DNA from: Pristiophorus japonicus
Lineage: Eukaryota
DNA: 64,000 bases
NCBI RefSeq assembly: GCF_044704955.1
Contig: NC_091995.1
Location: 14,012,001-14,076,000 of the forward strand
Direction of reading: 5' to 3'
Each line of letters starts with the position of its first letter. Within the stretch, counting starts at the first letter, position 1. The translations under genes and the position numbers were made by a program. Shown in pieces: positions 22,763 through 23,710 of the stretch. Under the pieces are notes generated by a model, which was not told the DNA's origin, ran no database searches, and worked only from the letters and a program-made list of their open reading frames with translations.

Positions 22763-23202
22763 AATTTCAGTAACGGTGCATACTGGAGAAAGGAATCCCA
22801 GAGGGTTGCAGCTGACAAAGGGAAAAATATATTGTAATAGTATAGTTGCATCCCTGGTCAGTGCTTGTGACGTTTTATTACATTAAAGAGGCTATATAAA
22901 TGCGCTATATATGCTCGAGGAACAGCATCTTTTTTGATTAGGCAGTTCCTTCTGGACTCAACAAAGTTAAATAATGTCAGACCACTGCCATTTTTTCTGG
23001 CGGCTGCTGTTGGTGATTCTGCCATTCCCAGTTGCACATTTCTGGTTCAGGACAAGGATACAGAATGACCACTAAAAACAAACTCCATTATCTGGGTCCA
23101 TTCCTACTATACCCCAACGTCTCCCTCCATATCAAACCCAAGAATAAACACGAATTTGTATATATGCAACAATCTGTAAGCTCTTCTGCTGATTGAATGG
23201 GT

Positions 23203-23218
23203 GGCTCTTAAAAGAGCC
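23203..23218 (-). terminator. Histone 3' stem-loop (H4) with downstream element
   Basis: GGCTCTTTTAAGAGCC-ACCCA followed by AGAAGAGCT. Confidence 0.95.
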
Positions 23219-23254
23219 TTTTTGGGTTTCAGGTCTTAATTGTATTAATATTTT

Positions 23255-23566
23255 TCAACCACCAAATCCATAGAGTGTCCGCCCCTGGCGTTTCAGAGCG
23301 TACACCACGTCCAGAGCGGTGACCGTCCTGCGTTTGGCGTGTTCCGTGTATGTAACCGAGTCCCTGATGATGTTCTCCAAAAAAACCTTCAGTACTCCTC
23401 GGGTTTCCTCGTAAATGAGGCCGGAGATGCGCTTGACGCCACCTCGGCGAGCTAAACGGCGAATAGCCGGCTTGGTAATGCCTTGAATATTGTCACGAAG
23501 GACTTTGCGGTGTCGCTTGGCTCCTCCTTTCCCTAGCCCTTTGCCCCCTTTTCCTCTACCAGTCAT
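23255..23566 (-). CDS. H4: Histone H4 variant (103 aa; S1T, V65I, A69S, K79R, M84L)
   Basis: ATG at 23566, full-length H4 sequence, intact stem-loop and promoter. Confidence 0.97.
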
Positions 23567-23643
23567 AACGAAGAGCAAATTATCAAAAAAAATTCTAGCC
23601 CAGCAATTGAATCGGAAATGGAAACTTGCGGCAGCACATACTC

Positions 23644-23710
23644 ATTTTATACAGTACTGGCGGACCTGGTTGGAAACCTATAAAATGGGCGGAGTCCGGA
23701 TGCAAATGAG
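23644..23710 (-). promoter_or_regulatory. H4 promoter: TATA, site II-like element, octamer
   Basis: Minus strand GGTTTCCAACCAGGTCCG (23661-23678) resembles vertebrate H4 site II; TATAAAA at about 23645-23651; octamer at 23700-23707. Confidence 0.75.

Follow-up and report, generated by a model that had tools for sequence, protein, structure and literature searches.

An H4 gene with five conservative substitutions

The stretch of shark DNA analyzed here (64,000 nucleotides, referred to below as the window) carries a single H4 gene, P0001, which contains no joints. Its product aligns with H4 chains in the PDB across all 103 residues (E = 1e-60) and is 95.1% identical to the canonical H4 with Ser1 that is found within fusion proteins, which corresponds to five differences. 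The protein is not identical to bulk vertebrate H4, with which it shares 98 of 103 residues. A first-pass annotation of this DNA had listed the substitutions S1T, V65I, A69S, K79R, and M84L, and all five are borne out by our alignments and by the identity value. Thr1 is also present in some PDB entries for H4, such as 4uuz_B.

Each of the five substitutions has a BLOSUM62 score of at least 1, as do just 168 of the 674 single-base non-synonymous changes that are possible in this ORF, and five of five would be expected by chance with P ~ 0.001. Therefore, the earlier description of the changes as uniformly conservative holds. The grouping of four of them within residues 65 to 84 is not significant (P = 0.079). 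By mass, S>T and V>I (+14.016 each) resemble a methyl group, A>S (+15.995) resembles an oxidation, and K>R (+28.006) comes near dimethyl or formyl, so that M>L (-17.956) is the only distinctive shift. Codon usage had likewise been called less GC-rich than that of the neighboring histone genes, and we found a GC3 value of 0.56 for P0001, whereas the window's seven other histone ORFs range from 0.79 to 0.88. In a comparison with the pooled ORFs of the three core-histone neighbors, the difference is significant (Fisher P = 4e-8). P0001 is thus confirmed as a real and intact H4 gene that differs from vertebrate H4 (Table 1).

Table 1. Features of the H4 variant gene and of the histone genes that accompany it, in window coordinates
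Feature	Position	Strand	Basis or remark
Variant H2B (C75, I81, S84)	20567..20947	-	Octamer and stem-loop
Purine-rich sequence resembling a histone downstream element	23178..23187	-	11 nt past the expected cleavage site; read by eye, putative role
Histone 3' stem-loop of P0001	23203..23218	-	Rfam RF00032 match 23178-23223
Stretch covered by run X5 contig	23235..23603	-	Second individual; one synonymous difference at 23324
H4 variant CDS (P0001)	23255..23566	-	103 aa, intronless; ORF and PDB H4 alignment
Leu84 codon (M84L)	23312..23314	-	Alignment
Arg79 codon (K79R)	23327..23329	-	Loop 2 / LRS surface; alignment
Ser69 codon (A69S)	23357..23359	-	Helix 2, faces helix 3; alignment
Ile65 codon (V65I)	23369..23371	-	Helix 2; alignment
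Thr1 codon (S1T)	23561..23563	-	
TATA box	23645..23651	-	TATAAAA
H4 site II-like element	23661..23678	-	GGTCCG core (23666-23661) at its end
GC box	23687..23692	-	
Octamer of P0001 promoter	23700..23711	-	12 of 12 bases as in H2B-promoter octamer 21014-21025
Second variant H2B	34931..35341	+	Extended N-terminus, stem-loop
Arginine-rich H1	37632..38285	+	Stem-loop
Arginine-rich H1	47295..47870	+	Stem-loop
Long arginine-rich H1	49543..50442	-	Relatives in sharks, rays, skates, and a chimaera
Divergent H1-like ORF	53355..53975	+	Stem-loop, no Pfam match
H2A	55122..55511	+	Stem-loop, partly unreadable

Promoter and 3' signals

The stem-loop of P0001 is the best of the four matches to the Rfam Histone3 model (RF00032) in the window, with a score of 39.6 bits (E = 3.7e-8). 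It is followed on its 3' side by ACCCA and then by the purine-rich sequence AGAAGAGCTT (23187-23178). The nearest AATAAA lies 376 nt 3' of the stop codon, and the contigs of the available sequencing runs are of a kind that cannot show transcript ends. The TATA box, stem-loop, and downstream element that had previously been called intact were all located. The element with the GGTCCG core was classed as site II-like by its resemblance to the H4 site II consensus, for which the literature searched yielded no source.

The first-pass annotation had also reported an H2B-type octamer in the H4 promoter, and its complete match to the octamer of the nearby H2B promoter supports this reading. The 11-mer at 23710-23700 has just two copies in the window, and the other resides in that H2B promoter (at 21014), which is 2.7 kb from the P0001 promoter. 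The bare 8-mer octamer is expected in ~2% of 200-base promoters. Because P0001 is intronless, is clustered with other histone genes, and carries both a stem-loop and a purine-rich element, it would be classified as a replication-dependent (stem-loop) histone gene.

A cluster of variant H2B and arginine-rich H1 genes

Nine histone-type stem-loops are present in the window. Eight of these stand behind histone ORFs, namely two for H2B, P0001 itself, four that are H1-like, and one for H2A. No H3 gene was found within the 64 kb. The earlier reading was right about the H4 gene and its H2B-type octamer, but it missed the gene's setting, a cluster in which H2B variants are accompanied by arginine-rich H1s. 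The closest single-domain relatives of the cluster neighbors are shark proteins, and the nearest relative of the window's H2B is a protein from a hexanchiform shark (91%).

To compare the H2B proteins, 31 sequences were chosen by hand from the homologue lists (26 variant-type and 5 canonical). Among these, residue 84 is S or T in all 26 variant rows and N in all 5 canonical rows, and the variant rows also carry C75 (24 of 26) and I81 (18 of 26). The alignment reveals two variant classes that occur across sharks, rays, and skates. Both are set apart from canonical H2B in the corresponding tree (support 98/98 and 95/83), although the tree leaves 12 of its 29 inner branches without resolution. 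Similarly, the long H1 has 22 matches, of which 17 are chondrichthyan and include one from a chimaera. The ratio R/(K+R) ranges from 0.40 to 0.66 in the 17 chondrichthyan relatives versus 0.08 to 0.29 in the other five matches.

Within each of seven species, the relatives of the H2B and H1 proteins have longest contigs of one and the same length (Heptranchias, Heterodontus, Rhincodon, Chiloscyllium punctatum, Mustelus, Carcharodon, and Hypanus). Furthermore, the canonical H2Bs of Heptranchias, among those listed, sit on contigs other than the one with the variant cluster. This pairing in seven species argues that the cluster is an old locus that has been conserved apart from the canonical genes. 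On the strength of these sequence comparisons, the variant H2B/arginine-rich H1 cluster is an elasmobranch-wide locus, and we found no description of it in the literature searched.

Several other features of these genes and their surroundings were observed. In lamniform sharks, one of the variant H2B classes is scattered over many chromosomes. The promoter of the second H2B gene in the window includes a degenerate octamer at 34818-34829. The long H1 is 299 amino acids in length and ends in an arginine-rich tail that includes six consecutive arginines and, after them, serines and a cysteine, an arrangement reminiscent of protamine-like sperm proteins. The divergent H1-like ORF has a globular domain without a Pfam match and an acidic stretch, and has kept its TATA box together with its stem-loop. 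An orphan histone stem-loop (33511-33526) stands behind a GC-rich stretch (33150-33526, + strand) without a histone ORF. This stretch bears a weak likeness to the H1s of the window (E at least 0.15) and is possibly a decayed gene for H1 or for a small basic protein. Finally, a gene of the SAPCD family (PF25825), with its first exon at 902-1384 on the - strand, flanks the cluster. One human paralogue of this family is located in the MHC class III region, and the mammalian histone cluster adjoins the MHC, so that a link between the two clusters is conceivable. For a link between the SAPCD neighbor and the MHC, Pfam and Atlas give the family only, and the literature searched held nothing usable.

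Probable conservation of the H4 variant among sharks

The exact 103-residue protein is represented in NCBI, nr, and UniRef, and is encoded on six NCBI contigs, the longest of which has 115,848,844 bases. When five of the cluster neighbors were looked up, two were singletons found in UniRef only, without contigs, and three were absent. Therefore, the six contigs with the P0001 protein most likely come from other assemblies. A contig of a lamniform shark with exactly 115,848,844 bases carries both H2B classes and an H1 relative (P0276, P0285, and P0312). Thus, an identical H4 probably lies in the same cluster of a lamniform shark, a placement drawn from the equal contig size rather than from DNA alignment. 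The six contigs may represent as few as one other species, and five of them are unplaced. Because the closest match to the H2B of the window comes from a hexanchiform shark (91%) and the H1 relative of the lamniform shark differs from that of the window, the two sharks should belong to distant lineages. The lamniform lineage split from that of the window's shark ~250 million years ago.

The chromosomes that carry the cluster exceed 115.8 Mb in Scyliorhinus, Mustelus, Hypanus, and Hemitrygon. These cluster chromosomes therefore carry no annotated identical H4, and the gene must be changed, unannotated, or lost there. A homologue search with residues 56-97 gave no shark orthologue of P0001 among the matches listed, because clustering at 90% buries the protein in an H4 cluster of 7160 members.

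We then compared P0001 with 134 H4 proteins selected for their likeness to the variant (the best 120 of 6908 matches plus 14 others). The four core changes at positions 65, 69, 79, and 84 occur together in none of the 134. Individually, I65 was found once in the 134 proteins, S69 in 28, and R79 in 16, whereas L84 was found in 28 of 133 and T1 in 19 of 79 proteins aligned at those positions. Since S69, R79, L84, and T1 are each common in the H4 of other eukaryotes, these changes may be functionally neutral.

A motif scan of metagenomes uncovered the combination of I65, S69, and L84 in six loci of H4 genes (L001-L006). By our own reading, these are not shark sequences and instead come from a single fungus-like organism with introns, in which they represent two paralogous genes. 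They belong to an intron-bearing, divergently arranged H3-H4 pair whose H4 converged with the shark variant at these three positions. The presence of this trio in an unrelated eukaryote indicates that it is compatible with H4 function. Taken together, the database comparisons suggest that distantly related sharks have probably kept the P0001 variant unaltered at a syntenic locus and that it is of old origin.

Divergence from a second H4 copy

Three records of a DNA run (X3 records 1, 6, and 7) match the coding region of P0001 without difference, and this run is possibly the source of the window itself. Overall, four of the seven run rows may stem from the source DNA and are hence not independent. 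Another contig of X3 (record 3), which aligns to window positions 23319-23556, is H4-like and 80% identical, with differences at 47 of 238 bases. Over the central 60 codons, 24 synonymous and 5 non-synonymous differences from P0001 are among those listed. These correspond to a dS of at least 0.87, a dN of 0.04, and a dN/dS ratio of ~0.04 (P = 2e-12), values for which the differences were assigned by row depth from a partly listed table (8 rows missing) and for which the comparator is probably a decayed copy. The protein changes in record 3 are R19L, T30I, G48V, L49H, and R67M, and P0001 is canonical at all five sites.

The high synonymous divergence relative to the low protein divergence argues that P0001 has long been separate from other H4 copies while its protein remained fixed. 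The evidence for purifying selection in this comparison derives from a paralogous contig rather than from orthologous DNA. The first-pass annotation had proposed an old variant under purifying selection and suggested a check of dS against dN. When run against the H4-like copy in the same genome, this check agrees with the proposal, as does the identical protein on six NCBI contigs. The original grounds for the proposal, which were the conservative changes alone, were weak, but the independent evidence leads to the same conclusion.

Among the differences listed for record 3, none falls on the first base of codon 65 or of codon 69. Record 3 may therefore belong to the variant lineage of P0001 and have decayed since.

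Hints of transcription

None of the runs with matching sequence is recorded as RNA. One further run (X5) comes from another sample and another study, and its run type is unrecorded. It includes a contig of 399 bases whose first 369 letters correspond to positions 23603-23235, and whose last 30 letters have no match in the window. The contig starts 42 nt below the TATA box, crosses the ORF, and stops just before the stem-loop. Its sole difference over these 369 letters is synonymous, at T80. This contig spans the 5' UTR to the 3' UTR and so has an mRNA-like shape, which hints at transcription. X5 leaves 23085-23206 and most of 23634-24600 uncovered, and this absence of cover carries no weight for tissue restriction or library type. 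Runs X6 and X7 have no contig that matches the variant, and the H4-like pieces in X6 differ at 7 of 48 and 9 of 60 letters, which proves nothing in either direction.

Proposed role and alternative explanations

We regard it as nearly certain that P0001 is a functional, conserved gene, and as likely that its protein has distinct properties. On balance, we lean toward the complete model in which P0001 is a functional variant belonging to a tissue-restricted, probably male-germline, nucleosome set. According to this model, the gene would have moved out of the homogenized arrays of canonical histones at an early stage of shark evolution, after which purifying selection would have kept it almost fixed. 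Its mRNA is predicted to be of the stem-loop (replication-dependent) type. P0001, the variant H2Bs, and the arginine-rich H1s would be active in one limited kind of cell. Male germ cells that have yet to change over to sperm proteins are the most likely candidates, and there the set might perhaps repackage DNA in developing sperm. More tentatively still, and as something we hold to be possible rather than probable, cartilaginous fishes may have kept a dedicated H4 for hundreds of millions of years, in a germline nucleosome with co-evolved H2Bs and arginine-rich H1s.

A structural rationale can be offered for these proposals. On helix 2, a single turn separates residue 65 from residue 69, and residue 84 is at the start of helix 3. 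V65I and A69S, together with M84L, would therefore probably repack the helix 2/helix 3 core near the H4-H2B contact. The changes at the end of helix 2 in the neighboring H2Bs (A81I and N84S/T) may match those in the H4 core. This core adjoins the H4-H2B four-helix bundle, for which the literature searched held no source of a contact map. K79R would retain a positive charge at the loop-2 DNA contact at the expense of a modifiable lysine, and S1T would retain a hydroxyl as phosphate acceptor. The octamer itself would be expected to stay normal, while the stability between dimer and tetramer would be retuned. We infer this stability effect, as well as the co-assembly with variant H2Bs, the transcription, the tissue, and the cross-species placement of the gene, whereas the sequence, its signals, the cluster, the identical protein elsewhere, and the surplus of synonymous divergence were observed directly. 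Position 69 of the Oikopleura variant H4t has been described as a buried site directed at helix 3 (PMC3156773). H4 residues 78-81, including K79, form the LRS surface, and silencing in yeast suffers when positive charge is lost there (PMC2587916).

Some of these observations would also be accommodated if P0001 were a conserved and expressed isoform that is functionally equivalent to canonical H4. Its changes would have become established a single time by drift, once the gene was outside the homogenized arrays, and would have been kept because any working H4 is strongly constrained and because the three core changes compensate for one another. This would fit with all five changes being conservative, with four of the five residues being common in other H4s, and with the I65/S69/L84 trio in an unrelated eukaryote. 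Furthermore, the small differences between replication-dependent H2A and H2B isoforms have no characterized functional significance (PMC9526256). However, the H2B and H1 genes around P0001 belong to classes that stand apart throughout the elasmobranchs, and A69S recurs in a proven testis variant. We thus consider equivalence unlikely, if worth keeping in view. An artifact or relic is far less credible, and the notion that P0001 is a young pseudogene, a product of species-specific drift, or an assembly error is largely refuted. Its GC3 has drifted toward the flanks (0.56 versus a GC content of ~0.41), and the genome also contains another H4 copy that has decayed. Yet the ORF and its signals are intact, all five changes are conservative (P ~ 0.001), the identical protein appears in other assemblies, and the second individual represented by X5 differs synonymously only. 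Run X3 also agrees without difference, even if it may be the window's source.

A functional variant could also serve some program other than the male germline, such as that of nucleated red cells, oocytes, or early embryos, and the evidence from conservation and from the cluster is silent on tissue. Arginine-rich H1s could act like H5 in nucleated red cells, although the known genes for H5/H1.0 and oocyte H1 are polyadenylated and lie outside such clusters. Fish eggs store histone mRNA (PMC9526256) and H2B.1 is also expressed in ovaries (PMC8857922). By contrast, the stem-loop clusters of multiply substituted histones in Oikopleura are commonly male-specific (PMC3156773). On this evidence, a role in one of these other tissues seems rather improbable, and we continue to favor the male germline.

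Significance

Reviews name H4G as the only characterized human H4 variant and describe H4 variants as infrequent. A search for H4 variants in sharks or cartilaginous fish found no description in the literature covered, which included few subscription journals and did not extend to older work on shark sperm proteins. P0001 is probably an ancient vertebrate H4 variant in a conserved cluster of variant histones, and is apparently unreported so far.

The one characterized vertebrate H4 variant, H4G, arose recently, does not give stable nucleosomes, and has been called into question. An old, invariant, and full-length vertebrate H4 variant would break the rule that H4 is almost free of variants. 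If the reading of a long-kept germline nucleosome is true, no earlier vertebrate H4 variant would combine deep conservation with competence to form nucleosomes. Moreover, the convergence of A69S with the tunicate H4t would then suggest that germline chromatin has been tuned more than once by the same structural means. P0001 can be regarded as a five-residue natural experiment on the constraints acting on H4 and on tuning of the H4-H2B interface.

Comparison with known histone variants

Canonical replication-dependent H4 genes share with P0001 all but five of the encoded residues (98 of 103), the stem-loop, the TATA box, and a site II-like promoter. P0001 is unlike them in its five substitutions, low GC3, H2B-type octamer, and location outside the canonical arrays.

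The best functional analogue of P0001 is mammalian H2B.1 (TH2B), whose gene is clustered and intronless, with a stem-loop and few conserved core changes, but which represents another histone class. H2A.1 and H1t are further mammalian germline variants with stem-loops, and a mammalian H4 counterpart is not known. The stem-loop of germline H2B.1 is noted in PMC8857922.

Among vertebrate H4 proteins, the hominid H4G (H4.7, gene H4C7) is, like P0001, a divergent H4 encoded inside a replication-dependent cluster. H4G is described as a hominid-only, polyadenylated variant with ~85% identity to H4, a C-terminus shortened by five residues, and the change D85A. It is also reported to form no stable nucleosomes, and whether it counts as a true variant has been questioned (PMC6895281, PMC9526256). 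P0001, in contrast, appears to be old. That P0001 could itself be H4G/H4.7 is ruled out by its full length, 95% identity, retained D85, and stem-loop.

More distant cases include the H4.V proteins of rice and trypanosomes, which are likewise encoded by single divergent H4 genes apart from the canonical copies, but in unrelated lineages. Most of the variation in rice H4.V falls within the first 17 residues, whereas four of the five changes in P0001 are in the histone fold (PMC7617672, PMC13052989). H4 variants of chicken and soybean are also mentioned in PMC13052989.

A further close parallel is H4t of the tunicate Oikopleura dioica, which, like P0001, has few substitutions including A69S and is encoded in a cluster of variant histones. 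The two proteins differ in that H4t has I21 and M22 where P0001 has V21 and L22, and in that H4t lacks V65I, K79R, and M84L. H4t is testis-specific and lies within a male-specific cluster, and both its testis expression and its sperm peptides have been demonstrated (PMC3156773). Because H4t comes from a tunicate, the A69S change that it has in common with P0001 would have arisen by convergence.
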